This document shows positions 3,249 to 45,911 of a stretch of DNA of 64,000 nt, in pieces. The first letter of the stretch is position 1, and every line of letters begins with the position of its first letter. Source of the stretch: Candidatus Krumholzibacteriales bacterium (GTDB lineage: Bacteria > Krumholzibacteriota > Krumholzibacteriia > Krumholzibacteriales > WJIX01); contig JAWODM010000014.1 in assembly GCA_046483305.1 (NCBI GenBank), positions 59,367-123,366 of the forward strand, given 5' to 3'. The notes beneath the pieces are model-generated. The model was given only the letters and a program-made list of their open reading frames with translations, did no database searches and was not told the DNA's origin. The translations under genes were made by a program, and so were the position numbers.

Positions 3249-3260
3249 AGGGTGAGGAGT

Positions 3261-4595: not shown

Positions 4596-5003
4596 GTGAC
4601 CGTATTCACCCATTTTTCTGCCGGGGCCCTGCTTGGCTATTTCTCTCCCGGGTTAGCTTTCGCCGCTTTCCTGGGGCTGTTGAGTCATCTGCTGCTCGAT
4701 TATCTGCCGCATTACGACTTTGAGAATGTATGGCTGGAAATATTATTGGGCTGCGCCGTTCTGGGCTTTCTTATAGCGGGCAGGAGCTGCACCGCTAATA
4801 TCTGTATGGGAGGACTGGTGGCGGTGCTGCCGGATGTGGAGAATCTGCTCTGGAAACTGGGAGCGATCAGGCGGGAGAGGCGGATATTTCCATCTCACAC
4901 CGGCCTGATACCCCACGGAAGGGAGGCCGGAAGACTCAATCTGGCGGCACAGGTTGTTTTCTCTGCCACTGTTGTTGGTTTCCTGCTTTGGAGTAATAAA
5001 TGA
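4596..5003 (+). CDS. YdjM-like membrane-bound metal-dependent hydrolase family protein
   Basis: Small polytopic membrane protein with FTHFSAG and SHLLLDYLPH motifs resembling the YdjM/DUF457 family. Its stop overlaps the next gene's start (ATGA at 5000-5003). Confidence 0.45.
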   Translation: MTVFTHFSAGALLGYFSPGLAFAAFLGLLSHLLLDYLPHYDFENVWLEILLGCAVLGFLIAGRSCTANICMGGLVAVLPDVENLLWKLGAIRRERRIFPSHTGLIPHGREAGRLNLAAQVVFSATVVGFLLWSNK

Positions 5004-8000
5004 AAAGATTAATGATCATAATACTTGTTTTTGCCGTATCCACCCCGGCGCTGAGCTCCGAGCCTCAGGTGAGGATTATAGATTCTGACGGCAGGGGAAT
5101 GGTTGTGGAGGTAACCAGCCCTCCTTACCGGAGAATCCCCGGGCCTGGCGGCCCGGCCAGCGGAGGAGAGATAATAGAAGTTCCCGGTTATGAATTGATT
5201 ATGGAAGAAGACAGGCCGGTGCTTCCTCGCCGCAGGCATCTGTTCTCGGTTGGTTCCGTCTCTGAGATAAAAGTAGAAGTTATTGAAACCGAAACGGAAA
5301 TAATTGAGGGCGCCAAACCTGCCATATTCCATTACGGTTTTGAAATCAATCAGAATTTATGGGAGGGGGCCGGAATCCTGCCCGAAAAGGATAACAGCTT
5401 TGTATTTCTCAGAAAAGCCGGACTATACAGGAAGAAACCCCTCGCCCTGGTAGAGGTCCGGCCGGTGATTTTCAATGAGGAAACGGGGCGGATGACATTC
5501 GCTTCCAGGATTTTATTCAGAATCTCTCACAGTTTCTCTGAGCCGGAAAGAGGAGCGGGCCTGCCCGGTTTCATACTGGGCGCAGGGGACGAAAGCCCCG
5601 TTTCGATAAGCAGGCCTGAAGCGCGGCATTCAGATTTCCAGTTTGGAGAATCAGATCAGTGGGTGAGGCTGGAAGTTCCGGAAACGGGGATATACAGGGT
5701 CGATTATGACGCCCTTCATGATAATGGAATAAACCTGATGGGGATCGATCCCTCCGGGATACGAATCTTCTCAGGGGGGCATTTCTCACAGAATACCAAT
5801 CTTTTTCAGCAGCCGGAGTCAGTCGTGGACGGGGGAAGTTTCAAACAGGATTACAGTATGTCCGAGCATGCCATAAGGCTGGTTGGGATGGAGGACGGCA
5901 CCTTCGATCCCGGCAACTATATTCTGTTCTTTGGCGTGGGAGTGGAAGGGTGGACTGATTATCTGGAACCTGAGGCGGAATCTCACGAACGTTACGACAA
6001 TCTCTACGAAAAGAATAATGTCTACTGGCTGAGCCTGGGAGGAAACTTCGCAGGCGAACCGGCCAGAATGGAATCTCTTGATACCGCCCCCTCCGGCAGC
6101 TCGCCGGAGAACACCATTGATTCCTATATCGAGAGGCTCCATCTGGAGGAGGACCGGGAATATTTCCCGCTTATCTCCGACGACAGATGGGTATGGGATT
6201 TCCTGGTATCCGGGGGGAATAAATCCACCAGAAAGGAATTCAGCGTTCATGATATCGTGAGCAGCGGCTGCAGAATCAGAACTATCGGTTTCGGGGGAAA
6301 GGACAGCGTAACCGACCTGGCCAGGTGTTATCTCAATGACGTCCTGGTGGGGGAAATGGCCTGGATCGGCTCCGACGGCAGTTTCAACCCCGATACCCTT
6401 GATGTCAACGTATCCTCACTCAGAGAGAGCAGCAACTACTTTGAATACCGGAAAACAGACAGCGGGATGGAGATGAATATATACTGGTATCAGGTTTTTT
6501 ACGAGAGGTACCTCAGGCCCGATCCCGATTCCGGAGATCTTGATTTTTCCGCTCCGGGCGCCGGCGGATCCACCCGTTTCATCCTCACGGAGTTTTTCGG
6601 AGAAGACCCATTTATCTTCGATGTTACCGACTATTACAATCCGGTATTACTGGAAGGAGCATATTCTTCCAATGATTCGGTGATCTTCGATTACGGGCTC
6701 GGCACATCTTCCGGGCATTTCATGGCGGTTACCCCTTCCGGCATAAAGGAACCCGGGATAGAGAATTCAGGCAGTATTCCTTCGTTGAGGGATGAACAGG
6801 CGCCTTCCTCCATGGTTGTGATATACCACGGCGCCTTCGAGGAAGCCGCTCTCGAGTATGTGGCGCACCGTTCCGGAAATAATTCTCCGGGTGTGATAAG
6901 GGCGGTGGATATAGACGATGTCTATAATAATTTCTCCGGCGGGCTGAAGGATCCCCTGGCAATAAGAAATTATCTGAAATACCTGTATGACAACTATTCA
7001 GAGGGCGGGGAACCGGCGATAGAATACGCCCTGCTGATGGGAAAGGGAACTTTCGATCCCAAGGATATCAAGGGGGCGGGGAAGGATTTCATTCCATTCT
7101 TCTACAGGACCGTGGGGGGATTTAATGTTTTCGTGGAATACGATGACTTCCTGGCCAGGCTGGACGACACCGGCGACGACTTCGTGGATATCGCCATGGG
7201 AAGGCTGCCCTTTCAGAATTCGCAGGGGGCGGGTAATTACATGGACAAGCTCCGGGGTTACGAAGCGGAAGATAACAACGGCGCCTGGAAGAATAAACTC
7301 ATATTCGTGGCCGACGATGAACATCAGGGAGACAGCCACACGCAGTTTGAGCATATGCAGCAGACCGAACGGATGAGTTCCAACGCAATTAAGCGGGATC
7401 ATTTCGATATCAGCGAAGTTTATCTTCACGAATATCCATTTGACGGTTCCACCAAACCGGAGGCCGCGGCGGCTCTCGCGGAGGAATGGAATGAGGGAGG
7501 TCTGCTGGTCTGTTATTTCGGACACGGTTCTCCATACCAGCTGGCGGACGAGCTGGTACTTAAGAAGTCAGATATATATTCTCTGAATAACGGTAACCGG
7601 CTGCCCCTGTTCCTGCCTCTTTCCTGTTCGGTGGGGGATCAGGAAAAGTTATATGATACATCCCTGTCGGAAGATCTGATCCTCGCCGAAGGAAGGGGGG
7701 CTATTGCCTCCATCGCGGCGGTGACCATAACACTGCCCACCTGGAATGAGGATATGTGCCGTCTCTTTCTGCTGAGGTTGTGGCCGGAGGGGACCCTTGA
7801 TTCCGAAACGGTGGGGAAGGCCCTGAGTTACGCTAAAATAAACAGCCTGACCGCGTATCCCTATATCCTTTCCGGCGACCCCTCCATGAAAATGGCAATG
7901 CCCGAGCTCAACGTCAGGCATGATTACTCCACCATCGACACCCTGGTTACCGGGTTCAGATACTCGGAGAGGGGTTCGGTAATGGTGGATGGCTCTCTTG

Positions 8001-8914
8001 ACCCCGGGTTCAACGGAACCGCCGAAATAATCGTTCGGGAAGCAGAAAAGCGGTTTGAAGTTAATAATTATGATTATAACCACGAGGGCGCGGTAATGTA
8101 CCGGGGAACCTCGGAGATAACCGGAGGTATATTCGATTTCCAGTTTGTAGTGCCTCTTCGCTGCAGGATAGGCGACCGGGCCAGGCTTAGAAGTTATGTC
8201 TACAGCGATGATTACCGTGACGGCGTGGGCGCCTGTGATACCCTCAGGATTATCCAGAATTCCACGCCTCCGGCAAACGACGGGCCTCCCAGAGTCAGCA
8301 TGTACTTCAACAATATGGCTACCAGGGTTAAAAAGGGCTCGCGGCTGTTTGTTGATATAGCTGATGATAACGGTATAGCCATACTGGGCAAGGATCCCCA
8401 GAATTCGATATTGCTGGAGTTCGATGACAGCGGATACCCCATACAGGTTACGGATTATTTCCAGTATGATCATAATTCATACACCAGCGGAGGGCTGGAA
8501 TACTCACTGAATGAGGATTTTGATATCGGAGACCACTCGGTTCTCCTGAGGGTATTCGACAATCTCGGGGAGATGTCGACCGATACCCTGAACTTCTCCA
8601 TAGTCGAAGAGGGGGTGCATAAGATAAGTGATGCCTTTAACTTCCCCAATCCGCTGAGTGAGAGCACCAATTTTGTCTTCCAGCTTACCTCGCCGGCGAA
8701 GGTGAAATTTGCGATTTATAATCTTTCCGGAAAGAAGATCTGGGAGAGAAGGATCAGCGCAGTGGAAGGATACAACAGCATTTACTGGGATGGAACGGAT
8801 TATGCGAATAATACTGTCGCTAACGGAACTTATATATACCTGATAGACGCGAAATTCCCCGGAACACTGGGACGAAACGAGAAAGTGAAGGGCAAGGTGG
8901 TAGTTCTCAAATAG
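5000..8914 (+). CDS. porU: PorU-like peptidase C25 (gingipain family) protein with T9SS C-terminal domain
   Basis: Signal peptide. C25-type catalytic dyad context: GHGSPYQ (~7520) followed by LPLSCSVGDQ (~7625). C-terminal ~85 aa (8657-8914) match the T9SS sorting-domain pattern (FNFPNPLSE...YNLSGKKI...NGTYIYLI). Sits immediately upstream of a PorV-like gene, the conserved PorU-PorV arrangement. Confidence 0.65.
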   Translation: MKRLMIIILVFAVSTPALSSEPQVRIIDSDGRGMVVEVTSPPYRRIPGPGGPASGGEIIEVPGYELIMEEDRPVLPRRRHLFSVGSVSEIKVEVIETETEIIEGAKPAIFHYGFEINQNLWEGAGILPEKDNSFVFLRKAGLYRKKPLALVEVRPVIFNEETGRMTFASRILFRISHSFSEPERGAGLPGFILGAGDESPVSISRPEARHSDFQFGESDQWVRLEVPETGIYRVDYDALHDNGINLMGIDPSGIRIFSGGHFSQNTNLFQQPESVVDGGSFKQDYSMSEHAIRLVGMEDGTFDPGNYILFFGVGVEGWTDYLEPEAESHERYDNLYEKNNVYWLSLGGNFAGEPARMESLDTAPSGSSPENTIDSYIERLHLEEDREYFPLISDDRWVWDFLVSGGNKSTRKEFSVHDIVSSGCRIRTIGFGGKDSVTDLARCYLNDVLVGEMAWIGSDGSFNPDTLDVNVSSLRESSNYFEYRKTDSGMEMNIYWYQVFYERYLRPDPDSGDLDFSAPGAGGSTRFILTEFFGEDPFIFDVTDYYNPVLLEGAYSSNDSVIFDYGLGTSSGHFMAVTPSGIKEPGIENSGSIPSLRDEQAPSSMVVIYHGAFEEAALEYVAHRSGNNSPGVIRAVDIDDVYNNFSGGLKDPLAIRNYLKYLYDNYSEGGEPAIEYALLMGKGTFDPKDIKGAGKDFIPFFYRTVGGFNVFVEYDDFLARLDDTGDDFVDIAMGRLPFQNSQGAGNYMDKLRGYEAEDNNGAWKNKLIFVADDEHQGDSHTQFEHMQQTERMSSNAIKRDHFDISEVYLHEYPFDGSTKPEAAAALAEEWNEGGLLVCYFGHGSPYQLADELVLKKSDIYSLNNGNRLPLFLPLSCSVGDQEKLYDTSLSEDLILAEGRGAIASIAAVTITLPTWNEDMCRLFLLRLWPEGTLDSETVGKALSYAKINSLTAYPYILSGDPSMKMAMPELNVRHDYSTIDTLVTGFRYSERGSVMVDGSLDPGFNGTAEIIVREAEKRFEVNNYDYNHEGAVMYRGTSEITGGIFDFQFVVPLRCRIGDRARLRSYVYSDDYRDGVGACDTLRIIQNSTPPANDGPPRVSMYFNNMATRVKKGSRLFVDIADDNGIAILGKDPQNSILLEFDDSGYPIQVTDYFQYDHNSYTSGGLEYSLNEDFDIGDHSVLLRVFDNLGEMSTDTLNFSIVEEGVHKISDAFNFPNPLSESTNFVFQLTSPAKVKFAIYNLSGKKIWERRISAVEGYNSIYWDGTDYANNTVANGTYIYLIDAKFPGTLGRNEKVKGKVVVLK

Positions 8915-9008
8915 TATCCTGAATCTTTCCGGGGAGCGGAATGTTTACTGCTTGACCGGGTAAGGTAACAATTATTATTTTAAGGTGGTATCAAAGAGAG
9001 GAAATGAT

Positions 9009-10007
9009 ATGAAAAAAATTACTGCAGCTTTGTTGTCAGTCTTAACAGCAATTCTTCTGATCCCCGCCGGCGATACCTTCGCTCAGGGACAGGCGGGAGC
9101 ATACTGTCTGAAGATAGCGCCCGGCGCAAGAGCTAATGGAATGGGTGGAAGCAGTGTGGCTATGGTCGAGGACGCTACCAGTCTCTGGTGGAACCCGGCC
9201 GGAATGTCCATGCTGGAATATTCAATGGCGGATATAATGCATACCAAACTGGTACCTACACTGGCCGCCGATGTTTTCTTTGAATATGCCGGCATAGTTC
9301 ACCACCTGGGTAGCGGGATCAGTGTGGGGTTCGCTTTTCAGTACCTCTCCTACGGCGAGTGGGTGGCCACCGATGAAGGCGGAGAAGAGCTCGGAAACGC
9401 CAGCAGTTACGAGATGTCTCCCATGGTAGGCGCCTCCATGAAACTGGGCGAGAATTTCAGCGTGGGTATGAACTTCAAGTTTGTATATATCGATCTGGCG
9501 CCGAAGTGGGCTACGGTGGAGGGAGAAGAAGGTGTGGGGCATTCCGTGGGCCTGGATATAGGATGCCTTTACAGGATCCCTGAATTCAGCTATGCCGGCT
9601 ACAGGGTAACCGGATTGCGGCTGGGAGCGGCCATATCCAACCTGGGGCCGTCCATTACCTATATCGACAGCGATCAGGCGGCCCCTCTGCCCCGGACCGT
9701 CAGGGTAGGGTTCGGTTATACCGCAGTCAGCAGCGAGCTGTTCGAGGTGAACGTGGCAGGTGACGTGGAAAGGCTGCTGATAGACGGAGATATCGATCCG
9801 ATATATCATGCCGGGAGTGAGTTCGTCTATACCGACCTTTTCGCGGTCAGAGTCGGTTATCTGTATGATAAGGACGGCGACGTCAAGGGTGTAAGCTACG
9901 GGCTGGGATTCAATATAAGCAACCGCATCAGGATTGATTACGGTAACGTTCCCCAGCATGAGGACCTTGACAGAGTGCACCGATGGTCACTGGGCCTTAA
10001 TTTCTAG
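9009..10007 (+). CDS. porV: PorV/PorQ-family T9SS outer-membrane shuttle protein
   Basis: Signal peptide, then the hallmark LKIAPGARANGMGGSSVAMVEDATSLWWNPAGM motif (GARxxGMGG...NPAG) of the PorV/LptO family. Size and composition fit a beta-barrel and the C-terminus is LNF. ATG at 9009 follows RBS GAGAGG. Confidence 0.7.
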   Translation: MKKITAALLSVLTAILLIPAGDTFAQGQAGAYCLKIAPGARANGMGGSSVAMVEDATSLWWNPAGMSMLEYSMADIMHTKLVPTLAADVFFEYAGIVHHLGSGISVGFAFQYLSYGEWVATDEGGEELGNASSYEMSPMVGASMKLGENFSVGMNFKFVYIDLAPKWATVEGEEGVGHSVGLDIGCLYRIPEFSYAGYRVTGLRLGAAISNLGPSITYIDSDQAAPLPRTVRVGFGYTAVSSELFEVNVAGDVERLLIDGDIDPIYHAGSEFVYTDLFAVRVGYLYDKDGDVKGVSYGLGFNISNRIRIDYGNVPQHEDLDRVHRWSLGLNF

Positions 10008-10033: not shown

Positions 10034-13000
10034 TTGCGCTTAATTCGATATAGATGGTTATCTGCTGCGTTGCTACTGGTATCGTTAATCTTTCCGCGAA
10101 CCGGAAGCGCTTCGGACAAACTGCCGGTTCTGGAAAAACTCCCCTCGGGGAACCTGATCATAACGGGCCGCTACACGGCTGGCCGCCGGGAGAACTATCC
10201 GCGAAGAAGAAGGTTTAATTACGACCGGCCGTCCATGAGGGAATTCAAAAGGAGGGATGCCAGGCCTCCCCTTCGGTCTTCCGCGGAAGTATCCGGAACC
10301 CGGCACGTAGCCCTGATAAGAATAGGATTCAATACTGACCGGAAAGACGGCCTTTCCAGCCTGGATATAAATGCCGGCGAGGGTGGGTTTATCCTGGAGC
10401 CGGATCAAGACTGGATTATAGATCCCCCTCCGCATGACAGAGACTACTTTAACGCACATATGACCTGCCTGAGAAACTATTATCATGCTCAGTCCTGCGG
10501 CAGGCTCGATATTACCTGGGAAATATTCCCCGCCGCCGACAACAGCTGCTACAAGCTCTCCGACCTCGCCGATTACGGGCCCGGAAGCGGGATGTGGACA
10601 ACCGGCCAGCTGGTTGATTTTGTTCACGCCTCTCTGGATGTAGCCGATCCGGATGTTGACTATACCCGGTTCGATGCAGTGATTATAGCTCACGCCGGTC
10701 CAAATCTTCAGAGCGACGTAAACAATGATACCCCCAATGATGTCCCGTCATTCTTCGCCCGGCTGGGAGATGAAGACCGGTTTGAAACCGGCGACGGATT
10801 AATAATTACCGATTGTTCGGTAATTCCGGAGACCGGTATTCAGGATGGTTACTACTCCGGCATTTCGGCTGTTCTGGCCCATGAATTCGGCCATCAGCTG
10901 GGCCTTCCGGACCTGTACGATATTACCAGCGGCGGAACCGGCATAGGGATCTGGGGCAATATGGGAAGCGGCGGCCAGCTGGGAGTATCTCTGGGAGGGG
11001 AGCGGATAGACGGGATTATTCCTGCCGGCCTCAGCGCCTGGTCCCGGTACTACCTGGGATGGGTCGAGGCGGATACCGTGGAATCTTTCAGAGAGGCCAT
11101 GGAGATTCCCGCCGTGGAGAAGGTTCCGGCTGAGATAATAAGGATAGATATATCCAATGACGAATACTTTCTTATAGAGAACAGGTGCGTGGAGATTGAT
11201 CAGTATCTGACTCTCCTGATAGCCGACCAGGAAACCGGTGTGGTGCTGGGTGTCTACAACTGCAAAAACTGCACGGAAGAGAACATTTACGACGATGGAT
11301 TCATTTATGATCTTGAACTCTCCACCGAATATGACTGTCTTCTGCCGGTGGACCCGGATCTTCCCGCGGGGCCGTTTGACATTAAGCCTGATTTCGGGCC
11401 TGGCCTGCTGATATGGCACATAGACGAGAGGCTGATTGCGTCCAGGTGGGAGGATAACACGCTCAACAGCCGAGAACCATTCTCGATAAGGCTTATGGAA
11501 GCCGGGGGGGTTCTGGATATAGGCGATCCCACTTCGCCGCTCAGCTACGGCAATTACGATGACGCTTATTACCAGGGCAACAGCAATAGCTTTTCAGATG
11601 TGACCATACCCGGCGCGTGGAGTAATATGGGAGTCCCTTCGGGGGTGACGGTGGAGAATATCTCGGCCAGGGATACTGTGATGACTTTCGACGGAGGAAG
11701 AAGGGCGGTTCTTGAAGCGGGGAATATATTCGCCGATACGCTCCCTGCTGCCGAATGCCTGTTACCGGTGGGGAGCCAGCCCGGAATGCTGGCGGTTGAT
11801 CATCAGGGAAACGGCTGGCTGGACGGGATGCCATTCCCGGTTTTCAGCATTGGCTCTTCCCCGCTGCTTCCTTCTGCTTACGGGCCGGGTTTCGCGCTTG
11901 GCGGGGATGCGGTAATTATAGGAGATGCGGAAGGGTATATTCACGCGATTTCTATCTCAGACTGGTCTGAGGCTGGCGGGAACTGGCCGGTTGCCACCTC
12001 CGGATTGAGCGCATACCCGGTGGTTATGGAAATGGAAACAGGAATGGCGGTGGCGGCTGCGGATGAGGAGGGCAGAATTTCCGTGTTGAACAGCTCGGGC
12101 GTGGAAGAATATTCGTTTCAGCTGCCGTCAGGACAGGTAAACGCGGCTAACATTTCGGCTGTGGTCGATTCTGCGGGGCTTACCGGCCGGCTGATCTTCT
12201 TATCGGCGGGGGACAATTCGGTATACCTGTGGTGGTGGAATTTCATCCTCGGAGAGTCCGAATCCGTGAGACTTCCGGTTTCAGCTGATGAAGTATCGGG
12301 CGCCGCTGCACTGGCTGCCGGCGATATCCTGCCCGGGAAAACGGGTTTGGAGGTATATCTGACCGCTCTGCGGGCGGGAAAGATCTATCTCTGCTCCGCT
12401 GACGGGGTAATATTCGAGAGAGATCTCGGCCAGGGGGTCCAGCCCCCCGCGGTGGTGGATATCAACGGAGATACCGTTCTGGATATAGTAGTTACCGACG
12501 GAGAGTCCATATATGCCATCTCAGCTTCGGGGGCCAATCTTACCGGCTGGCCCAGGAAGATTAACGGCATGCATAATTTCCGGCGCAGGCAGAAGATAGC
12601 CGTTCCGGTTTCCGCTGTCGGAAGCGGAGGCGGGGCCAGGGTGATTGCCGTTTCGACGGACGGAATTATATTTACTCTGGATCACCGGGGGGAGCTGCTG
12701 GGCGGCGGCTATCCTGAAAGGATAGCCGGATCGGTAAGACAGGCGCCGCTATTTGTCGATATGGGCGGAGAAGGCGCTTTCGGTTTTATCGATGTCCTGG
12801 AGAACGGGACCGGAGAATATTACCAGAACAGGCCTGAGGCAATCAGAGTCAAATGGAGATCCGGGCCTTTCCGGCCGGATGAGATAGCGACTTCCTGGTT
12901 CGGCTCAAGCGCTGATGCAATGCGAAGATCGTTTGCGACTGGAGTGGGTAGATGGAGCAGCCCCTCGGCGAATTGGGCCGCCATGGACGATAACCTGATA

Positions 13001-13258
13001 ATTTATCCGAACCCGGTTGAGGGGGGAAGGGCCGGTTTTCAGTTCAGGGCTCCTTCCGGATCTCACGCTTCTCTGATGGTATTCAATATTTCCGGAGAGA
13101 TCGTGCTCCAGAGGGAAAAGAGGTGTGAGGGAGGAGAGGAACATGAAATACCGGTACAGCTGTCCGGCACCGGTTCCGGGGTTTACATCGCCCGCCTGGT
13201 GATTACCTCCGGAGGAAGAAGCTTCAAGACACTTAAGAAATTTGCTGTAGTAAATTAA
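10034..13258 (+). CDS. M6/immune-inhibitor-A-like zinc metalloprotease with FG-GAP repeats and T9SS C-terminal domain
   Basis: Signal peptide. HExxH zinc site VLAHEFGHQLGLPDLYD (HEFGH at 10880-10894). Downstream FG-GAP/VCBS-like repeats (VVDINGDTVLDIVVTDGES). C-terminus IIYPNPVEGG...MVFNISGEIV...GVYIARLV fits a T9SS sorting domain. Confidence 0.7.
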   Translation: MRLIRYRWLSAALLLVSLIFPRTGSASDKLPVLEKLPSGNLIITGRYTAGRRENYPRRRRFNYDRPSMREFKRRDARPPLRSSAEVSGTRHVALIRIGFNTDRKDGLSSLDINAGEGGFILEPDQDWIIDPPPHDRDYFNAHMTCLRNYYHAQSCGRLDITWEIFPAADNSCYKLSDLADYGPGSGMWTTGQLVDFVHASLDVADPDVDYTRFDAVIIAHAGPNLQSDVNNDTPNDVPSFFARLGDEDRFETGDGLIITDCSVIPETGIQDGYYSGISAVLAHEFGHQLGLPDLYDITSGGTGIGIWGNMGSGGQLGVSLGGERIDGIIPAGLSAWSRYYLGWVEADTVESFREAMEIPAVEKVPAEIIRIDISNDEYFLIENRCVEIDQYLTLLIADQETGVVLGVYNCKNCTEENIYDDGFIYDLELSTEYDCLLPVDPDLPAGPFDIKPDFGPGLLIWHIDERLIASRWEDNTLNSREPFSIRLMEAGGVLDIGDPTSPLSYGNYDDAYYQGNSNSFSDVTIPGAWSNMGVPSGVTVENISARDTVMTFDGGRRAVLEAGNIFADTLPAAECLLPVGSQPGMLAVDHQGNGWLDGMPFPVFSIGSSPLLPSAYGPGFALGGDAVIIGDAEGYIHAISISDWSEAGGNWPVATSGLSAYPVVMEMETGMAVAAADEEGRISVLNSSGVEEYSFQLPSGQVNAANISAVVDSAGLTGRLIFLSAGDNSVYLWWWNFILGESESVRLPVSADEVSGAAALAAGDILPGKTGLEVYLTALRAGKIYLCSADGVIFERDLGQGVQPPAVVDINGDTVLDIVVTDGESIYAISASGANLTGWPRKINGMHNFRRRQKIAVPVSAVGSGGGARVIAVSTDGIIFTLDHRGELLGGGYPERIAGSVRQAPLFVDMGGEGAFGFIDVLENGTGEYYQNRPEAIRVKWRSGPFRPDEIATSWFGSSADAMRRSFATGVGRWSSPSANWAAMDDNLIIYPNPVEGGRAGFQFRAPSGSHASLMVFNISGEIVLQREKRCEGGEEHEIPVQLSGTGSGVYIARLVITSGGRSFKTLKKFAVVN

Positions 13259-13268
13259 GGGAGTCAGG

Positions 13269-14264
13269 ATGTCAAGAGCAGGAAAGCGCATCACGGCGGC
13301 AGCGGTTCTGATACTGTTTCAGGCGGCCGGAAATTTCTCGGAGGCAGAAGGCAGCGGCCTTCTGACGGCTCCTTCCAGTCTGAAACTTTCCCATTCCGAA
13401 AGAATCGAAAGCAGAAGGAACGAAAGACTGGTCTCAATATTCGATCAGAACAGAGATTTCAGAATCGCCTCCGGCGGCAGCTCGGAGGAGGCCCTTCGCC
13501 TCAACGGGGAAAGGATTCTTTCTCCCGGTATGGTGGCACCTGACAGGGATTCCGGGCCATACACCGCTGCCGGCAGGAGAAAAAGGAATATGGCGATATC
13601 GATTATCGGCTCGGCCCTGCTTCCCGGGCTGGGCGAGATGTATATGTATTCCAGAACCGGAGAAAAATCGATCCTTGGCCGGGCTCTGGGGTTTATCGCG
13701 TTCGAAGCGTACCTGTGGTACGGATATTTGCACAATCACGACAGGGGCAAGGATTTCAAGCGTCAGTACGAAGAATACGGCGACGCTCACTGGAGCCAGG
13801 AAAGGTTCCTTCAGAACCATCCGATCTGTTATACTACCTTTCAGGGGGGGTGCGACAGCTGGCAGCAGTACAATGAGATAGGTTCAGATGATCACTCTTC
13901 AGAATATTTCTATTTCTTCTATACCGCCAAAGAGGTGGACAGGGAGGAATATTACGAGAATATGGGCAAATACGATGCCTTCCTCTACGGCTGGGACGAC
14001 TGGAACGGGGAGTACCTGCACGAGGGGGGAGAGCCCAACTACTGGACCCCTCATAGAACGTATTACTGGGACCTTCGGGGAGAGAGTAATAAATACCTGC
14101 TCAGGGCGGATTACCATGTAATGGGAATGATCGCGGCCAGGGTTGTTTCGATGGTCCAGGCCGGATGGATAGCCCACAACCGGGGGTCAGCGCCGGAGGA
14201 ATGGTCTCTGGAGATAGACAAATCACCCCTGGATTACAGATGCAGCATTAACTACAGGTTTTAG
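13269..14264 (+). CDS. hypothetical secreted protein, LPGLGE-motif family, paralog A
   Basis: Signal peptide. Central IIGSALLPGLGEMYMY...GRALGFIAFEAYLWYGY segment and a Y/E/W-rich region, ending INYRF. Shares architecture and motifs with the next gene. Confidence 0.5.
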   Translation: MSRAGKRITAAAVLILFQAAGNFSEAEGSGLLTAPSSLKLSHSERIESRRNERLVSIFDQNRDFRIASGGSSEEALRLNGERILSPGMVAPDRDSGPYTAAGRRKRNMAISIIGSALLPGLGEMYMYSRTGEKSILGRALGFIAFEAYLWYGYLHNHDRGKDFKRQYEEYGDAHWSQERFLQNHPICYTTFQGGCDSWQQYNEIGSDDHSSEYFYFFYTAKEVDREEYYENMGKYDAFLYGWDDWNGEYLHEGGEPNYWTPHRTYYWDLRGESNKYLLRADYHVMGMIAARVVSMVQAGWIAHNRGSAPEEWSLEIDKSPLDYRCSINYRF

Positions 14265-14278
14265 GGAGGAGATAGAAT

Positions 14279-15154
14279 TTGCGTAAAATATTTGTTTTCA
14301 TAACAGTGATTTTCCTGCCGGTAAACCTGTTTTCCTCATCTCTTTCCATGGACCCGGCGCCGGTCCCTGAACCGGAACAGAAAAGGTCGGTTTTCAGAAG
14401 TTCATATTCGATAGGCGGTTCCGGCTCAGGTGGCATCAGGCTCTCTCTGGCCGGCAGGGAAGGGATCAAATTACAGCTCCTGAGCGCCAGGCGGGGCTAT
14501 GGCTTTGACGGCACCTTTGAACCCGGCAGCCGTGATTATTCCACAGGAGGGATTATAGCCCGCAATGTGCTTCTGCCCGGACTGGGCCAGCGGAAGATGG
14601 GACAGAGAATGCGCTCCCGGATATATTTTTTCCTGGAAGGAGCCGCCTGGGTGGGACTGGGCACGTTCTTCTGGCAGAAAATGGCCAGGACCGGCGCGTA
14701 CGAGGAGTACGCGGTGGCCTACGCCGGTGTGGAAGAAAAAGGGCTTTCAGAGGATTACTATGAGACCATCGGCAATTTCATGAGCAGCGACGGCCCGGGC
14801 GGGTATAACGAATATGTTATGAGAGAAGCCAGGGACCTTTACTACCCCGACCAGGAGGCCATACAGGACTATTATGAGGCCAATGCTCTGACTGGCGACC
14901 AGTCCTGGAGATGGCTTTCCGAGAGTACCTATGACAAATATAATTCACTCCGCAAGGGAGCAAACAGCTCCGAGAGAAGGGCGGTTTATTCCCTGTTCTT
15001 TATGCTGGGATTGAGGCTGATCAGCAACATCGATGCGGTCAGGTCTATTATGACCGATGAAGGAGATCAGGAGCAGGCCGGACAGGGCGGGGCAGCCATA
15101 GATATTCATCAGAACGGGGAAGGTATTTCCGTCGTTCTGAAACGGCCCTTCTGA
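14279..15154 (+). CDS. hypothetical secreted protein, LPGLGQ-motif family, paralog B
   Basis: Signal peptide. IIARNVLLPGLGQRKMG...LEGAAWVGLGTFFWQ segment, DYYE/YYP-rich region and C-terminal Phe. Paralogous to 13269-14264. Confidence 0.5.
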   Translation: MRKIFVFITVIFLPVNLFSSSLSMDPAPVPEPEQKRSVFRSSYSIGGSGSGGIRLSLAGREGIKLQLLSARRGYGFDGTFEPGSRDYSTGGIIARNVLLPGLGQRKMGQRMRSRIYFFLEGAAWVGLGTFFWQKMARTGAYEEYAVAYAGVEEKGLSEDYYETIGNFMSSDGPGGYNEYVMREARDLYYPDQEAIQDYYEANALTGDQSWRWLSESTYDKYNSLRKGANSSERRAVYSLFFMLGLRLISNIDAVRSIMTDEGDQEQAGQGGAAIDIHQNGEGISVVLKRPF

Positions 15155-15210: not shown

Positions 15211-16122
15211 ATGCGGAAATTACACCGGTTGATTCTATTGTTAATTTTTGTTCCGGCGGCGGTTCATGCCGCCGTGCAGGAGGAAGAGCCTGCTGCCGGG
15301 GATTATCCGAATATAGTGGAAGCTGATTCGGTTCTTGCCGGGCTGAAGGAACCGCTGGGAATCTCCGCCGGGGCCCGCGGCGGGATATATGTGGCCGACG
15401 GGATGAGCGGCAAACTTTTCAAATATATGGCCGGCCGGGAAGTTCTCGAATTTCCGGTGCCCCGGTCGCTTGTTTCGATATATCCGGTTGATGTGGCGGC
15501 CGGAGCGGACCCCTTTATATATGTACTGGATTACTCCTCCGGGAATGTACTAAGATACGACTACAGGGGAGGATATCTGGATGTACTTATATCGTTCGAT
15601 GATTTCAAGCCCTCTTCAATATCGGCGGGAGCGGGAGGGAGCTTTATTCTGACAGATATGGAGAATCATTCGGTCCTGGTACTCAATCCCCTCCTGGACA
15701 GAGAGGTGGAGATAGAGGGTTACGGCTGGGAAGCGGGCTTTTTCAATAAACCGGCGAAAGCTGTAATACTGCGGGACGGGAGGCTGGCGGTTGCCGATAC
15801 CGGCAACCGGAGAGTGCAGATATTTTCGTCCTCGGGCCTCTATCTGAGGCAGTTATCCCCGCCGGACAGCCTTGGCTTCAAATCTCCAAGGTCGCTCTGC
15901 TGCGGCCCGGAGGGAAATATATTCGTTGCCGATACCGGGAGGGGTTCGGTTTTTGCCTACTCGCCCGGAGGGGAATATATCACCGCGATAGATTCCTATT
16001 CGGGAAAGAAAATATCGCCTTCCGCCCTCACTGTCGATCTGAATGATAACCTTTTCGTTGCCGATCTGCTTTCCAGGTCGATTCTCATATACAGGCTTGT
16101 TTATCCGGACAATGAGCGATGA
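15211..16122 (+). CDS. NHL-repeat beta-propeller protein, secreted
   Basis: Signal peptide. Repeated VADTGNRRVQIFSSSG and VADTGRGSVFAYSPGGEY segments typical of NHL repeats. Confidence 0.65.
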   Translation: MRKLHRLILLLIFVPAAVHAAVQEEEPAAGDYPNIVEADSVLAGLKEPLGISAGARGGIYVADGMSGKLFKYMAGREVLEFPVPRSLVSIYPVDVAAGADPFIYVLDYSSGNVLRYDYRGGYLDVLISFDDFKPSSISAGAGGSFILTDMENHSVLVLNPLLDREVEIEGYGWEAGFFNKPAKAVILRDGRLAVADTGNRRVQIFSSSGLYLRQLSPPDSLGFKSPRSLCCGPEGNIFVADTGRGSVFAYSPGGEYITAIDSYSGKKISPSALTVDLNDNLFVADLLSRSILIYRLVYPDNER

Positions 16123-19100
16123 AGCGTTACTCCCTTTCTATTATTATCATGGTTGTATTCACCCTCGCGCCTCTGCGGGCAAATCCGCTCGCGGAGCCGG
16201 GAAGAGGTCCGGTTTCGAGTAAGTCTTTTATCCTTTCGCCGGGCCAGAGCCGTATCGATACCGGCATATCTTTCATAAAACCGGGTTCCGATTCCCTTAT
16301 CATTGACGGCAGGGAAATCGAAAGGGGTGCCGGATACCGGATCAGTTCCCTCAGCGGGGTGATTATCCTGAACAACCCCGCTGAAGGCGGAGAGATGGCG
16401 ATCCTGTATTACAGCAGGTTCCATTTCCCCTTTCCCCCAGTGATGGCGAGAAGGTTCCCCGGAACCGGGGAGGCGCCTTTCAGAACTCCCCTCGCGGATA
16501 CTGCGGCGCTGTTCAGCAGTAAGAAAATTAATCCCTACCGCCTCAACGTTTCGGCCAGCAAATCGGTGGGATTCTCGGTAGGTTCCGCGAGAGGGGTGGG
16601 GATAGATCAGAGCCTGAGAGTGACCATTGCTGGAAAACTTGCCGAAGACCTGGAGGTCAAGGCGTTCCTTTCCGATGACGACCTGCCGGTACAGCCGGAA
16701 GGGAACACCGAGGAGCTCAAACGCCTGGACCGGATATCCATAAATATCAGGAGCAGGCATACCGAAGTAAAGCTCGCCGATTTTGCCTCCTCCCTGGACT
16801 GGTCCGTCTTTTCTTCCTTCGACAGGGAGCTCAGGGGAGGGGAGATTACGGTAAAAGCGGCCGGTCAGCGTTTCATGACAGGCGGAGGCATAGCCAAGGG
16901 CAGGTTTGAAACTATCAACATCACGGGGCGCGAAGGCGTTCAGGGCCCCTACCAGCTTCTGTCCGCCCGGAGGTTCAACGGAGTAATAGTGATTCCGGGT
17001 TCAGAGTCTGTATACCTGAATGGCAAATTAATGAAGAGAGGCCAGGAGAACGATTATGTCATAGATTACAACAGGGCGTCGGTTGCCTTTACCGAGAGAG
17101 TGCCGGTAACCGACGATTCGGAAATCGTAATAGAATTCCAGAAGGGCGAGAGCAATTACGAGCGGAATACCTTCATGGGGGGATGGTCCGCCCCCCTCCG
17201 GGAAGGCGCTGTCAATATCAGGGCCTTCTTCCTGACCGAGAGCGATGATAAGGACTCCCCTCTGGCCGGAGAGTTTACCGACGAGGAGATTTCAGCCCTG
17301 GCGGCGGCGGGAGACAACCCTGACAGCGCCTTTGCGTCCGGGGTGGAGAAGACAGATGAAGGGGGCAGCGGCTACATCTATTCGGAGGCGGATTCATATT
17401 TCGTGTTTGTAGAATCAGGCGCTGAATACCAGCTGGATTTCTACAAAGCCGCAGGCGGGGGGGATTATGATACCGACGGGTTTTCTTCCAGCGGAGAGCT
17501 GAAGTACCGTTACGTTGGCGAGGGAGAAGGGGATTACAGAATAGGCAGGCGGCTCCCCCTTCCTGAAAGGAAGGATCTGGTGGCGGTATCCGCCGATGCC
17601 GGGTCCGATCATCTCTTTCTGAGGGCGGAAGGAGATTTCAGCAGGCATGACAGGAATACCCTGTCCGGGCTCGATGACGGCGACAACAACGGGGCCGCCT
17701 ATACAGTGGAGGGGGGCCTGAGAGGGTTCGATTTTCTGGAATCAACCCTCAATCTGAAAGGAAGTTACTCATCGCTGGAGAGCTCGTTTGCCGCTCCCGA
17801 CCGGGTCCGCAGGGCCTATTTCTACAGGAACTGGAACCTGGAGGGAGTAGAGCTTGAAGGAAGGGAGAATATATCGGGCCTGAAGCTGAACTGGGAAAGG
17901 GACCGGTGGTGGAAGCTGGAAGGGAGCTACAGCAGGTTGACCCGAACCGGTGGGACCTCTGCGGGACGGGGGCGGGCTGAGGGAGAACTGGGGAATCCGG
18001 AAAACAGGGGGTTAAGGTTCCAGTGGCTGAGAACGGAGAACTCCGACCGGAGAAAACGGGAATTCGCTCTGGCGAAAGGGGTGTTTGCGATGTGGAAGCT
18101 GGTTCCGGGGATTACCCTGGACCGGGAGAGGTACCGGAGTTTCAGCCCCGCGGGGGCGGATACCGGAAGGTATTACAGGCAGGGAAAAATCTTTCTGGGA
18201 ACCCGGGATCTGAAAGGTTTCGATGCAGGTATCTCTTTCAACCGCAGGCTTACCGATAACCTGAGAGAGAGCGGCGGCGCGTGGTTCAGGGCCAGGGAGA
18301 ACGACGAGATTATTTTGAACGGTTCATACTCCGGTGGAACCAGGATGATAGATTTCTTTCTGAGCCACCGGGAGAGCGATGAGATAGAGTCTGGAAGCTC
18401 CAGCACCTTTGACCTGGCCAGGATCAAGTACCGGGATTCATACAGGCCGCTGGGGGTCGCTACCGACATCGGCTACAGGATCACTTCCGGCGAGGAGAGA
18501 AGAAGAGAAAGAGCTGTTATCTTCGTGGGAGAGAATCAGGGAGATTACGATGAAGAAGGCAACGAAGTGGGCCAGAAGAGGGGCGACTATATGCTTGTGT
18601 ACATCCCCGGAACGGGTACCGAAGGGGTCAGGACGGTTGAGCTGAACTGGAAGCTGAGCTTCGGGGATGGAATCAGGGGGTTCGGTTCAATGACGGATGA
18701 GGATGGCGGCCTGTTCAACCTGATAAAGAAGAATGTATCCCTGGACCAGATATTCTCTCTTTCCGAAAAATCAACCACCGATGAACTCTTCCGGCTCTAC
18801 ATCATGGATCCCGATCTTCTTCAGAGGGATGACGTGACGGTTGAAGGGTACAACCGGCTCAGGCAGGAATGGAACTTCCTCAGGGACGTCAGGAAGTACA
18901 ACCTCGGTTTTACCTTCTCCAGGGAGGACAGGGAGGATAACAGGACTGAAGGGGCTTCATCCAGCAGCTATCTCAGGGAGATGAGGCTTAAATCGGAGTA
19001 TTTGCCGGTTCCCTCACTGAGCATATCCCTGGAAGGAACCAGGACGGACAGAAGCAGTATTTCTGATAACAGGGCGGTACAGAGCTACGATATCCTCGCC

Positions 19101-19487
19101 TATACCCTCTCCAGCGCTCTCGGCTACAGGAGAGGGCCCAACGCCCGTTTCTCGGTGGAATTCTCCGGGCAGGACAGGGAGGATTACCTCTCAGAGTCCA
19201 GGCAGAATTCGTATTCATTCAAACCTTCAGCCAGCATCTCTCCGGCCGGGGATATAAACATAAGGACTTTCTACAAGTTTACCTACACAGATGTGAAGAA
19301 CGACGGGGGGCAGCCCCTGTTCTTCCTGGAGGAGGGGGTAAGGCAGGACTGGAACATCTTCAGCCGTTACCAGGTGGGAAAGCACATAAGCGTGGGACTT
19401 AACTATACCGGCAGAAGGGAAAAGGATTTCAGGGAGGAGGTGAAGACTGTCCATGCGCTCAAGGTTGAAAGCAGGGCTTATTTTTAG
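16119..19487 (+). CDS. large (1122 aa) hypothetical outer-membrane-type protein
   Basis: Cleavable signal peptide. Composition rich in alternating R/E/D/G/S/Y typical of beta-barrel proteins. C-terminal ESRAYF with terminal Phe. Start overlaps the upstream stop (ATGA). No family recognised by eye. Confidence 0.5.
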   Translation: MKRYSLSIIIMVVFTLAPLRANPLAEPGRGPVSSKSFILSPGQSRIDTGISFIKPGSDSLIIDGREIERGAGYRISSLSGVIILNNPAEGGEMAILYYSRFHFPFPPVMARRFPGTGEAPFRTPLADTAALFSSKKINPYRLNVSASKSVGFSVGSARGVGIDQSLRVTIAGKLAEDLEVKAFLSDDDLPVQPEGNTEELKRLDRISINIRSRHTEVKLADFASSLDWSVFSSFDRELRGGEITVKAAGQRFMTGGGIAKGRFETINITGREGVQGPYQLLSARRFNGVIVIPGSESVYLNGKLMKRGQENDYVIDYNRASVAFTERVPVTDDSEIVIEFQKGESNYERNTFMGGWSAPLREGAVNIRAFFLTESDDKDSPLAGEFTDEEISALAAAGDNPDSAFASGVEKTDEGGSGYIYSEADSYFVFVESGAEYQLDFYKAAGGGDYDTDGFSSSGELKYRYVGEGEGDYRIGRRLPLPERKDLVAVSADAGSDHLFLRAEGDFSRHDRNTLSGLDDGDNNGAAYTVEGGLRGFDFLESTLNLKGSYSSLESSFAAPDRVRRAYFYRNWNLEGVELEGRENISGLKLNWERDRWWKLEGSYSRLTRTGGTSAGRGRAEGELGNPENRGLRFQWLRTENSDRRKREFALAKGVFAMWKLVPGITLDRERYRSFSPAGADTGRYYRQGKIFLGTRDLKGFDAGISFNRRLTDNLRESGGAWFRARENDEIILNGSYSGGTRMIDFFLSHRESDEIESGSSSTFDLARIKYRDSYRPLGVATDIGYRITSGEERRRERAVIFVGENQGDYDEEGNEVGQKRGDYMLVYIPGTGTEGVRTVELNWKLSFGDGIRGFGSMTDEDGGLFNLIKKNVSLDQIFSLSEKSTTDELFRLYIMDPDLLQRDDVTVEGYNRLRQEWNFLRDVRKYNLGFTFSREDREDNRTEGASSSSYLREMRLKSEYLPVPSLSISLEGTRTDRSSISDNRAVQSYDILAYTLSSALGYRRGPNARFSVEFSGQDREDYLSESRQNSYSFKPSASISPAGDINIRTFYKFTYTDVKNDGGQPLFFLEEGVRQDWNIFSRYQVGKHISVGLNYTGRREKDFREEVKTVHALKVESRAYF

Positions 19488-21126
19488 TCTGATGCTGTTT
19501 GCGCCGTCAGTTCTGAATGCCGGGCGGGCGGCCAGGGTGGAATATGCCGGTATCGACCTTCTTGATACCGGAAAGCTGAAGGCGGATTCCTACCTGAAGG
19601 AAGGCGGGCGGTTTTCCGATTCGCTTCTTTCCATGGAATTGCAGAGGCTCGATTCGCTCTATTTCAATATAGGTTACCCCGGAGCGGTTATTGATGCCGA
19701 TACCGCCGCCAGTGGCGATCAGTACCTGATAACCATATCGGTAAGCGAAGGCGGGCAGGCCAGTTTCGGTAAAGTCGCTGTTGCGGGTGATAACCCTGTT
19801 GAGGAAAAGGGAGGGATTTACAGCCTGAAGCGGGGCGAAGATTTCCTCCCCGGGAGAGTGGAAGAGGCCATGAAATTTACCCTTTTCTCGATGAACAGGG
19901 CCGGATTCCCCTATGCCCAGGTATGGATCACCGGATTCGACTATATCCGGGCCGATAATTCGGTGGATATATCCTTTTCCGTAGTTACCGGCGAGCGGAT
20001 GACGGCCTCGGAGGTGGTATTCGAAGGGATTTCATCCACCGACACCTCCACCGCCATGATAGCTTCGGGTTTCAGGAAGGGCAGGGAGTATGACGAAAAG
20101 ATGCTGATCTCGGTCAGAAACCGCCTGGAGGCGAGCGGCCTTTTCGAAGAGGTTCTCCCCGGAAGGGTAATCCGCAGGAGCAAAGGGGAGGTTGCCCTGG
20201 TGTTTCCGGTCAGGGAACAGGAGAGAAGAAACCTCTTCCGGGGGGCTTTCGGATTCTCCCGGAAGCAGAACGATGAATACGAAGTTAACGGGAATGTGGA
20301 ACTTGAGCTTAATAATATAGCGGGGACGGGCAGGGGGGCTGAATTCACCTGGATAAACGACGGCAGGGATTATTCCAGGACAGAGGTGAGCTATCTGGAA
20401 CCGTTTCTTTTCTCCAGGAACCTGTCCCTGGAAACCTCCCTGAGGCAGATTGTCAGGGATTCCCTCTACAATATGAGCAGCGGGAGCCTGAGGTTCAGGG
20501 CGCCTTTCGGCCCGGCCGGATTCAGGCTGTCGGTTTCCGCCTCCGCTGACAGGATCGTAATCCAGAACGACGTCGATCTGAGCAGGAGTTTCAGGCAGAG
20601 ATACGGCCTGGGCCTTGAGAAGAGTAGCGGTTCATATCTGAGGTTCGAGACCTCGCTGGAGGGAGGGCTCAGGAACAGTTACTACAAATTCCGGGATGAC
20701 GAGTCTGTCTGGCAGCTGCTGTATAACATTGAGGCCACCTCTGAGATGCCGACTTTCCGGGGCCAGAGCGCTTATCTCAGGGTGGTATCCGAGGGGATAT
20801 TCAGCGGTGGAGAAATACACCCGGCGGAGCTGTTTTCGGTGGGGGGAGCGAGATCGATCAGAGGCTACCGGGAGAACCAGTTCAGGGCCGAGCGGGCGTC
20901 CTACCTCAATCTGGAATACCGGCTGGGAAGAACCAGCAGGGTATTCCTGTTCAACGATACGGGGGTTATTTACCGAGAGGATACCGGCTGGGAGTTCAGG
21001 AACGGCGCAGGATTCGGCATAAGGTCGGTATCAGCGGTAGGAATCATCGAGCTGAGCTTCGGAATGGCGGAGCGCTTCTCCCTGGACGCCGCCAGAATAC
21101 ATGTGTCGCTGGTGGAGAGTTTCTAG
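19453..21126 (+). CDS. Omp85-family (BamA/TamA-like) outer-membrane protein with POTRA domains
   Basis: Signal peptide. N-terminal POTRA-like repeats. C-terminal surface-antigen barrel with FSVGGARSIRGYRENQF motif and terminal VESF. Overlaps the upstream gene by 35 nt. Confidence 0.65.
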   Translation: MRSRLKAGLIFSLMLFAPSVLNAGRAARVEYAGIDLLDTGKLKADSYLKEGGRFSDSLLSMELQRLDSLYFNIGYPGAVIDADTAASGDQYLITISVSEGGQASFGKVAVAGDNPVEEKGGIYSLKRGEDFLPGRVEEAMKFTLFSMNRAGFPYAQVWITGFDYIRADNSVDISFSVVTGERMTASEVVFEGISSTDTSTAMIASGFRKGREYDEKMLISVRNRLEASGLFEEVLPGRVIRRSKGEVALVFPVREQERRNLFRGAFGFSRKQNDEYEVNGNVELELNNIAGTGRGAEFTWINDGRDYSRTEVSYLEPFLFSRNLSLETSLRQIVRDSLYNMSSGSLRFRAPFGPAGFRLSVSASADRIVIQNDVDLSRSFRQRYGLGLEKSSGSYLRFETSLEGGLRNSYYKFRDDESVWQLLYNIEATSEMPTFRGQSAYLRVVSEGIFSGGEIHPAELFSVGGARSIRGYRENQFRAERASYLNLEYRLGRTSRVFLFNDTGVIYREDTGWEFRNGAGFGIRSVSAVGIIELSFGMAERFSLDAARIHVSLVESF

Positions 21127-32442: not shown

Positions 32443-32505
32443 ACGGCTGACCGGCTGAACTGATGTTTGAAAATTATTCCAGTTGATATACAGGGGGCGG
32501 TGTGA

Positions 32506-36683: not shown

Positions 36684-36779
36684 TTGAAGAGATGATTTTT
36701 TTTCAGGCCTTTCGTTTATTTAAGTTATGCATTTTGCTTGAGTTAACTGCTTATTGTTTCATTATGCAAGGAGTGGCGC

Positions 36780-44785: not shown

Positions 44786-44801
44786 AAATTGAGGAATTTT
44801 T

Positions 44802-45881: not shown

Positions 45882-45911
45882 TTGAACGGTTCAATCAGGG
45901 AGTGATCAATA

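Follow-up and report, generated by a model that had tools for sequence, protein, structure and literature searches.

Two adjacent genes, here called A and B, in a stretch of 64,000 nucleotides from a Candidatus Krumholzibacteriales bacterium (contig JAWODM010000014.1 of assembly GCA_046483305.1, positions 59,367 to 123,366; hereafter the window, to whose first letter all coordinates below refer) encode, at the level of sequence profiles, true remote paralogs whose relationship is visible to profile methods but invisible to BLAST. By the same type of evidence, the two proteins are a divergent, paired, head-bearing branch of the known but uncharacterised DUF5683 superfamily. Judging from conserved gene order and structural models, A and B are probably an unrecognised subunit pair of the cell-surface machinery built around PorU, the sortase of the type IX secretion system (T9SS), and the outer-membrane protein PorV. 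Specifically, the reading that we favour, with a rough probability of 40%, is of an ancient, Sec-exported pair that would form a membrane-embedded heteromer and serve as an accessory of the PorU/PorV machine.

The two open reading frames, of 331 and 291 amino acids, lie exactly where the original prediction, made from the letters of the window alone, had placed them, and its central claim, that they are tandem paralogs with one architecture, is borne out by both the family profiles and two AlphaFold2 models. The pairwise alignment proposed as a check, if taken as the sole criterion, would have wrongly refuted paralogy: BLASTP of A against B aligned only 28 residues around the shared motif (E-value 0.08), and this approach was dropped as a paralogy test once profile-profile comparison succeeded. 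When the profile of the A family (alignment A1, 88 sequences) was compared with that of the B family (alignment A2, 73 sequences) using hhalign, 189 columns were aligned, beginning at the LLPGLG segment and ending with the terminal Phe (98.6% probability, E-value 7e-16), which makes A and B true remote paralogs. Reciprocal hmmsearch runs agreed, with the B profile recovering A of the window at an E-value of 8e-10 and the A profile recovering B at 3e-5. The positions common to both families in the joint alignment are S-x-x-L-P-G, E-x-x-x-W in helix 2 (E146 and W150 in A, E120 and W124 in B), YNE, YYE-x-N, one Trp, L-R-x-x-S, R-V-V-S-x-x-D-A and the final Phe. The first half of the motif originally proposed, LLPGLG[EQ], reads LLPGLGE in A and LLPGLGQ in B; the second half, G..A(W/F).G, turned out to be out of register, the real common positions being those of E-x-x-x-W. 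We found 143 homologs of A and 81 of B, and many columns are invariant in both families despite a sequence identity of about 40%.

These results bear directly on the possibility that A and B are just redundant soluble secreted proteins, or substrates of the T9SS, whose likeness reflects recent duplication or composition. While both proteins carry signal peptides and their BLASTP match is not significant, as this possibility would have it, we consider it very improbable, and it is largely refuted by the profile homology, by the A/B pairing across loci and by the presence of A- and B-types in divergent clusters (below). The homology between the profiles is strong, invariant positions are many, the long helices have hydrophobic lower halves, and the two types are already separate in distant lineages, where they have been co-retained in the same order. 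Further, neither A nor B matches Por_Secre_tail or TIGR04183, the T9SS C-terminal sorting domain (CTD) families, whereas PorU, the M6-like metalloprotease encoded immediately upstream of A and a 2454-residue protease encoded farther downstream all do. Lacking a sorting domain, A and B are not T9SS cargo.

The AlphaFold2 models, built from each family alignment, have mean predicted local distance difference test (pLDDT) values of 78.5 (A) and 76.6 (B), with cores above 90 (residues 100-305 in A). From N to C terminus, both models consist of a signal helix, a disordered N-tail, a helix kinked at PGLG (segments 101-117 and 121-130 in A, 89-98 and 102-106 in B), a helix of about 40 residues, a head of small Tyr/Trp/Glu-rich helices, an antiparallel return helix of about 45 residues and a lower-confidence, two-stranded beta-hairpin. 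Whether the fold is a beta-barrel or a helical hairpin had been left to structure prediction, and for both proteins the models indicate a helical hairpin; the barrel is ruled out since both models are helical with a single C-terminal beta-hairpin. The signal peptide, the variable region (about 70-80 residues, disordered according to AlphaFold2) and the late hydrophobic helix, all called from the sequence earlier, are present in A and in B, the signal-peptide-like segment being the sole strongly hydrophobic stretch in either protein. The Tyr/Glu/Trp-rich region described as a tail is also present but misplaced: it lies between the two long helices as an insert and does not form a tail. In A, this insert includes DAHW, two invariant cysteines (C187 and C195), YNE, EEYYEN and GWDDW. 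Short conserved motifs also occur inside the otherwise variable N-tails, S-[VI]-F being common to the two families and ETLRL-x-G-x-R-L-x-x-P belonging to the A family, and these may be docking peptides. Searches of PDB sequences with three profiles recovered no relative, and no specific solved fold relative of A or B was found.

The distribution of polar residues along the models provides the main clue to their environment. Over the lower approximately 20 residues of helices 2 and 3, the variable positions are hydrophobic, with only 10-19% being charged or strongly polar, compared to 47-67% in the upper halves. The sparse polar residues of the lower halves are the conserved ones, namely the Glu of helix 2 and the Arg/Asn, Ser and Asp of helix 3, which sit at matching depth. 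In the models, this pattern likely represents a lipid-exposed bundle that carries a water-exposed head, with the lower bundle likely embedded in a membrane. Hence, the earlier description of the proteins as secreted is right as far as Sec export is concerned but too simple, because about 20 residues of each long helix probably lie in a non-aqueous, membrane-like environment. The invariant Cys pair in the head of A fits an extracytoplasmic location, although it may alternatively be a metal site; distant A-type proteins also carry two Cys residues in the head, albeit at other positions. From the signal peptide, the three putative spans and this Cys pair we infer that the head and the N-tail are periplasmic.

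The original prediction recognised no family for the two proteins, and A and B themselves match nothing in scans of Pfam and NCBIfam, including PF18935 (DUF5683), at E-values of 1 or lower. However, its suggestion to check DUF5683-like families was the right lead, and the absence of a family no longer holds: relatives of A and B do match PF18935, which identifies the pair, by this sequence evidence, as divergent members of the DUF5683 superfamily. At an E-value of 1 or lower, 72 of the 88 A-family and 55 of the 73 B-family members match PF18935, the best at about 1e-5 to 1e-6, and a few homologs exceed its gathering cutoff of 26.7 bits (P0097 at 28.8 bits, and A-type proteins encoded next to dapB, described below, at 36-37 bits). 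Homology to PF18935 is thus transitive, at the profile level and across most of the domain. On the profile, the matches extend from position 4 to 131 of 151, but in the proteins they take up 170-205 residues for about 110-128 positions, which indicates that the head is an insertion; neither A nor B has the compact DUF5683 form of about 150 residues that lacks a large insert. PF18935 shares with A and B the S-x-x-LPGLGQ kinked first helix, a second helix with E...W and a late helix with the N/R-x-V-S-x-x-D-A motif, while A and B differ from it in the Tyr/Trp/Glu-rich head of 65-130 residues between helices 2 and 3, in their obligate pairing and in their PorU/PorV cluster setting.

The wider family came into view only with exhaustive profile search, a word-indexed homolog search with a combined A and B profile having recovered merely the Krumholzibacteriota set. 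In an exhaustive hidden Markov model search of 1.84 billion representatives with the B profile, 1392 relatives were found at E-values of 0.001 or lower (648 at 1e-10 or lower), most of them 220-330 residues long and aligned over the whole core. Among 103 wider relatives, 32 match DUF5683 at an E-value of 0.01 or lower (best 6.6e-10) and 12 match DUF6677 (PF20382). The latter, also uncharacterised, resembles A and B where the core begins, in the helix-PG-x-G-Q-helix hairpin, and is also matched by one B-type protein encoded next to dapB; it covers, however, only this first hairpin and has no counterpart of the head, helix 3 or the C-terminal hairpin. We found no functional literature on DUF5683.

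The link to PorU and PorV is provided by gene order. Locus scans were based on alignments A2 and A5, alignments A3 and A4 being too diverse to serve. Among species-representative genomes, B was found in 42, all of them Krumholzibacteriota or unlabelled or loosely labelled metagenome-assembled genomes, and in all 37 loci with available sequence the gene immediately 5' of B is A, according to a tblastn synteny table. In the same table, the gene order is invariant: PorU, PorV, (M6), A, B, NHL-repeat protein, a protein of about 1120 residues and an Omp85-family protein. The M6 gene is missing in six genomes (L022, L024, L027, L028, L033 and L043), and PorV is then directly followed by A. The full cluster is also present in six divergent relatives (L046, L048, L049, L050, L051 and L052), two of which (L048 and L049) are tied by their flanking proteins to Candidatus Eisenbacteria (Eiseniibacteriota), a separate candidate phylum. 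That is, synteny with porU and porV is conserved across divergent genomes of at least two candidate phyla, which answers the earlier call for a survey of the pair's distribution next to porUV with a cluster shared by Krumholzibacteriota and Candidatus Eisenbacteria. The position assigned to the pair, between a T9SS cargo protease and an NHL/outer-membrane block, was likewise correct and is conserved across loci. In metagenomes, long contigs carrying relatives at E-values of 1e-13 or lower have a large CTD protein upstream in 8/8 cases and a protein of about 1100 residues downstream in 7/8. A reduced form occurs in candidate division TA06 (L053, GCA_022562655.1, 1181-6727), where a single B-like gene directly follows that of a 1104-residue FG-GAP protein with Por_Secre_tail and has a ResB-like gene on its 3' side, in place of the NHL, approximately 1120-residue and Omp85 genes. 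In other lineages, TA06 among them, the protein that corresponds to M6 consists mainly of an FG-GAP propeller with a CTD.

Duplication of the pair had been described as old, with retained function. The first part is confirmed: divergent lineages, Candidatus Eisenbacteria among them, already have separate A- and B-types in the same order, as does a dapA-dapB context, and in each of four divergent clusters that were tested the gene on the upstream side scores as A-type and its downstream neighbour as B-type. The second part needs rewording, since redundancy is unlikely and the retention of both copies in a fixed order argues for complementary subunits; from this co-retention and order, a heteromer of A and B is the most likely arrangement. 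A 522-residue protein on a 2.4-kb metagenome contig (P0304), considered as an A-B fusion, was rejected, its low-complexity middle appearing out of frame, most likely as the result of a frameshift or assembly artefact.

Alternatively, it is possible that A and B are a general cell-envelope module outside the T9SS mechanism, one that binds or organises, for example, peptidoglycan, lipopolysaccharide or a lipid-linked glycan, and that has merely become fixed in an envelope operon in Krumholzibacteriota and Eisenbacteria. The most distant A-then-B pairs suggest as much: the weakest relatives (L090, 8523-10672, and L098, 8577-10576) have the order dapA, dapB (diaminopimelate pathway), A-type, B-type, with no T9SS genes nearby, and in L090 the gene of an S13 D-Ala-D-Ala carboxypeptidase lies 3' of the pair. 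Their A-type proteins, of 438-452 residues, are above the DUF5683 cutoff, and both members of the pair end in Phe. Classical DUF5683 proteins are widespread and, in Bacteroidota, presumably encoded near dapB. The conserved Tyr, Trp, Asp and Glu residues in which the head is rich would also suit a sugar-binding surface, many of which share this composition. Occurrence of the A-then-B order in both the PorU/PorV and the dapA-dapB setting makes the pair an ancient two-gene module with at least two contexts, and the dapA-dapB neighbourhood suggests an older, cell-wall-related one. Nonetheless, we regard a role wholly outside the T9SS as unlikely for the window subfamily: wherever a locus was long enough to judge, across two or more candidate phyla, PorV and a T9SS-CTD protein accompany it, and this linkage persists where M6 has been lost and in TA06, where the single copy follows a CTD protein.

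Under the hypothesis that we favour, that of a PorU/PorV accessory, the lower approximately 20 residues of the long helices would form, together with helix 1, a hydrophobic, membrane-embedded bundle holding the conserved polar set (Glu of helix 2 and Arg/Ser/Asp of helix 3), while the upper helix halves and the Tyr/Trp/Glu/Asp-rich insert would make up the water-exposed head, and the Phe-ended hairpin would close the chain. The resulting heteromer would be a fixed accessory subunit among the PorU sortase, PorV, the NHL propeller, the approximately 1120-residue protein and Omp85. Its helical bundle would anchor the pair, more probably in the cytoplasmic membrane, since SecYEG would be expected to hold back three hydrophobic helical segments, and the N-tail and head would then lie in the periplasm. 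From there, the aromatic and acidic heads, which may bind a partner or ligand, and the long flexible N-tails could reach the PorU/PorV complex of the outer membrane or a glycolipid or cell-wall ligand, and the pair would organise or tether the step in which T9SS cargo is processed and attached to the cell surface.

Several observations weigh against this hypothesis. The dapA-dapB pairs imply that the ancestral role of A and B need not involve the T9SS. Peaks in the family hydropathy profiles are only borderline, and a crude translocon scale gives the helices unfavourable values of +5 to +13, with helix 1 of the B family being especially polar. The positive-inside signal is ambiguous as well, with a Lys/Arg cluster preceding helix 1 in A but lying in the turn between helices 1 and 2 in B. 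Further, a cytoplasmic-membrane topology would put the invariant Phe hairpin in the cytoplasm, for which there is no obvious rationale, and the ending [LI]-x-Y-R-F, like neighbours that all have an outer-membrane character, points to the outer membrane instead. Finally, we found no experiment or structure for any DUF5683 protein, so the function of A and B is proposed from synteny and models only.

A C-terminal Phe had been singled out in the original prediction, and its conservation is beyond chance: Phe ends 120/120 A homologs, 78/81 B homologs and 97/144 wider relatives. A and B could instead be periplasmic helical proteins anchored in the outer membrane, with the Phe-ended hairpin acting as a beta-signal for the beta-barrel assembly machinery (BAM) or the co-encoded Omp85 and taking its place in an oligomeric barrel, or augmenting a beta-sheet of PorV, the 1122-residue protein or Omp85, and with the stalk and head in the periplasm. 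In both proteins the hairpin strands alternate hydrophobic and polar residues, their pLDDT (about 57-70 in both models) is as low as would be expected of an element that needs a partner, and the A-type ending, [LI]-x-Y-R-F, resembles the classical porin C terminus, that is, the beta-signal of outer-membrane proteins, in which a terminal Phe likewise follows alternating hydrophobic residues. The poor translocon scores of the internal helices would also be accommodated, as would neighbours that are all outer-membrane or surface proteins, including the dedicated Omp85 and a large protein with an invariant final Phe. On the other hand, A and B have the C-terminal aromatic residue of an outer-membrane beta-barrel protein but not its fold, with two predicted strands only and the rest helical, and a two-stranded hairpin alone cannot make a barrel. 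The ending of B-types, R-S-F, has Arg at position -3 and is a poorer fit to a beta-signal, 19/144 wider relatives end in Pro, and three hydrophobic segments of about 20 residues would be expected to stop transfer in SecYEG and keep the proteins in the cytoplasmic membrane. On balance, we consider an outer-membrane anchor somewhat unlikely, yet a serious rival.

With respect to known systems, the attachment complex of the Bacteroidota T9SS is given as PorQ, PorU, PorV and PorZ in ref. PMC12365241. PorQ and PorZ are encoded or act with PorU and PorV, as A and B appear to by context alone; the similarity ends there, PorQ being a beta-barrel and PorZ consisting of beta-propellers and a CTD, whereas A and B are predicted helical hairpins without a CTD, and there is no similarity in sequence or fold. 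A and B match no curated family of T9SS components in NCBIfam or Pfam (PorK/L/M/N, PorP/Q/T/U/V/W/Z, Sov and Plug included), and no PorQ or PorZ is recognisable in the cluster. Since the cluster has PorU and PorV but neither of these accessories, A, B, the NHL protein and the 1122-residue protein would occupy the accessories' place. Also among the systems nearest to A and B are the McpS/TorS sensor domains and the Wzz-type co-polymerases, which are periplasmic helical-bundle modules flanked by membrane helices.

The T9SS has been described almost entirely from Bacteroidota, and we found no paper that links Krumholzibacteriota, Eisenbacteria or DUF5683 to it, nor anything relevant on PorU2/PorV2. 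Here, instead, four functionally uncharacterised families (A, B, the NHL propeller and the approximately 1120-residue protein) and a dedicated Omp85 are locked into one invariant cluster with PorU and PorV in two or more candidate phyla. This cluster offers a different set of accessories, open to experimental test, for the processing or attachment of cargo. The context thus offers a first hypothesis for the DUF5683 superfamily and a lead for the T9SS outside Bacteroidota. It is intriguing, although doubtful, to go one step further and envision A and B as the membrane-embedded coupling unit of an unrecognised T9SS-linked surface-attachment machine, in which the buried Glu and Arg/Ser/Asp would relay energy or a conformational signal from one membrane to the other, stator-like, and the heads would keep the anchor, glycolipid or cell wall, in place while PorU catalyses attachment. 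If true, this would be the first function for the large DUF5683 superfamily, and the machine would comprise PorU, PorV, A, B, the NHL propeller, the approximately 1120-residue protein and Omp85, kept in several uncultivated phyla for which Bacteroidota-type accessories are not known.

The features of the pair and its cluster are listed in Table 1. Both genes have strong Shine-Dalgarno sites, and that of B follows the stop codon of A so closely that the two are very probably translated together. Between positions 4200 and 21800, terminator-like sites are not in excess (14 vs. 16.9 expected from shuffled sequence).

Table 1. Genes of the PorU/PorV cluster in the window and sequence features of the A/B pair
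Feature	Coordinates	Strand	Evidence or remark
PorU, T9SS sortase, first cluster gene	5000..8914	+	NF033707, 543 bits vs. cutoff 420
PorV/PorQ-family outer-membrane protein (PorV)	8985..10007	+	NF033709, 210 bits vs. cutoff 90; Pfam PorV match
M6-like metalloprotease, intact HEFGH, T9SS CTD	10034..13258	+	Pfam/NCBIfam scans
Shine-Dalgarno AAGGGAG for A	13257..13263	+	overlaps stop codon of upstream M6 gene
Gene A, A-type member of DUF5683-like pair	13269..14264	+	open reading frame of 331 aa, ATG start
A signal-peptide-like N terminus, about aa 1-26	13269..13346	+	model helix 3-21
A N-tail, about aa 27-98, variable, disordered	13347..13562	+	pLDDT <50
A helix 1, aa 101-130, kinked at S115-x-x-L-P119-G120-L-G122-E123	13569..13658	+	invariant columns, model
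A LLPGLGE motif, residues 117-123	13617-13637	+	within helix 1
A long helix 2, aa 133-174, hydrophobic lower half, conserved E146 and W150	13665..13790	+	
A head insert, aa 175-260, Tyr/Trp/Glu-rich	13791..14048	+	
A long helix 3, aa 261-305, hydrophobic lower half, invariant R291, S294 and D-A motif	14049..14183	+	
A amphipathic C-terminal beta-hairpin, ends ...INYRF, invariant Phe331	14196..14261	+	
Shine-Dalgarno GGAGGAG for B	14265..14271	+	begins one base past A stop TAG (14262-14264)
Gene B, B-type member of pair	14279..15154	+	open reading frame of 291 aa, TTG start
B N-tail, variable, disordered	14339-14540	+	
B LLPGLGQ motif, aa 98-104, in kinked helix 1	14570..14590	+	
B long helix 2, aa 110-149, conserved E120 and W124	14606..14725	+	
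B head insert, aa 150-214: DYYE, DGPGGYNE, REARDLYYPD, YYE-x-N, WRW	14726..14920	+	
B long helix 3, aa 215-260, invariant R246, S249 and D252	14921..15058	+	
B amphipathic C-terminal beta-hairpin, ends ...LKRPF	15089..15151	+	
NHL-repeat beta-propeller, signal peptide	15211..16122	+	Pfam NHL 1e-22; 3' of B in 43/45 loci
Uncharacterised 1122-aa protein, invariant C-terminal E-x-R-A-x-F	16119..19487	+	41/45 loci
Omp85-family protein with POTRA domains, last cluster gene	19453..21126	+	Pfam/NCBIfam scans

Among the neighbours in the cluster, the 1122-residue protein, whose gene overlaps that of the NHL protein by 4 nucleotides and the Omp85 reading frame by 35, has counterparts of 21-26% identity in divergent lineages; family scans and profile searches found it no relative in Pfam, NCBIfam or the PDB. 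We regard it as a probable large outer-membrane protein and partner of Omp85. The best NCBIfam match of the M6-like protein is 'T9SS-dependent M6-like inactivated metalloprotease', at 233 bits against a cutoff of 600 and despite the intact HEFGH.

Synteny extends beyond the cluster, with AccA and Trm112 upstream (3252-4217 in the window) and ThiC and a DinG-like helicase downstream (31114-34833), flanks that are kept across Krumholzibacteriota (including L001 and L002) and in the Eisenbacteria-linked L048. In the window, a region encoding the 2454-residue protease is inserted between Omp85 and ThiC. This subtilisin-like protein, encoded on the minus strand just 3' of the cluster (22314-29678), carries a CTD and is a putative, very large T9SS cargo protease. 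Farther downstream, the window also encodes hutU and hutI (35022-38066) and a type IV pilus set of PilB, PilT and PilC (43100-47123, plus strand), which is followed by a sensor histidine kinase (47148-48884).

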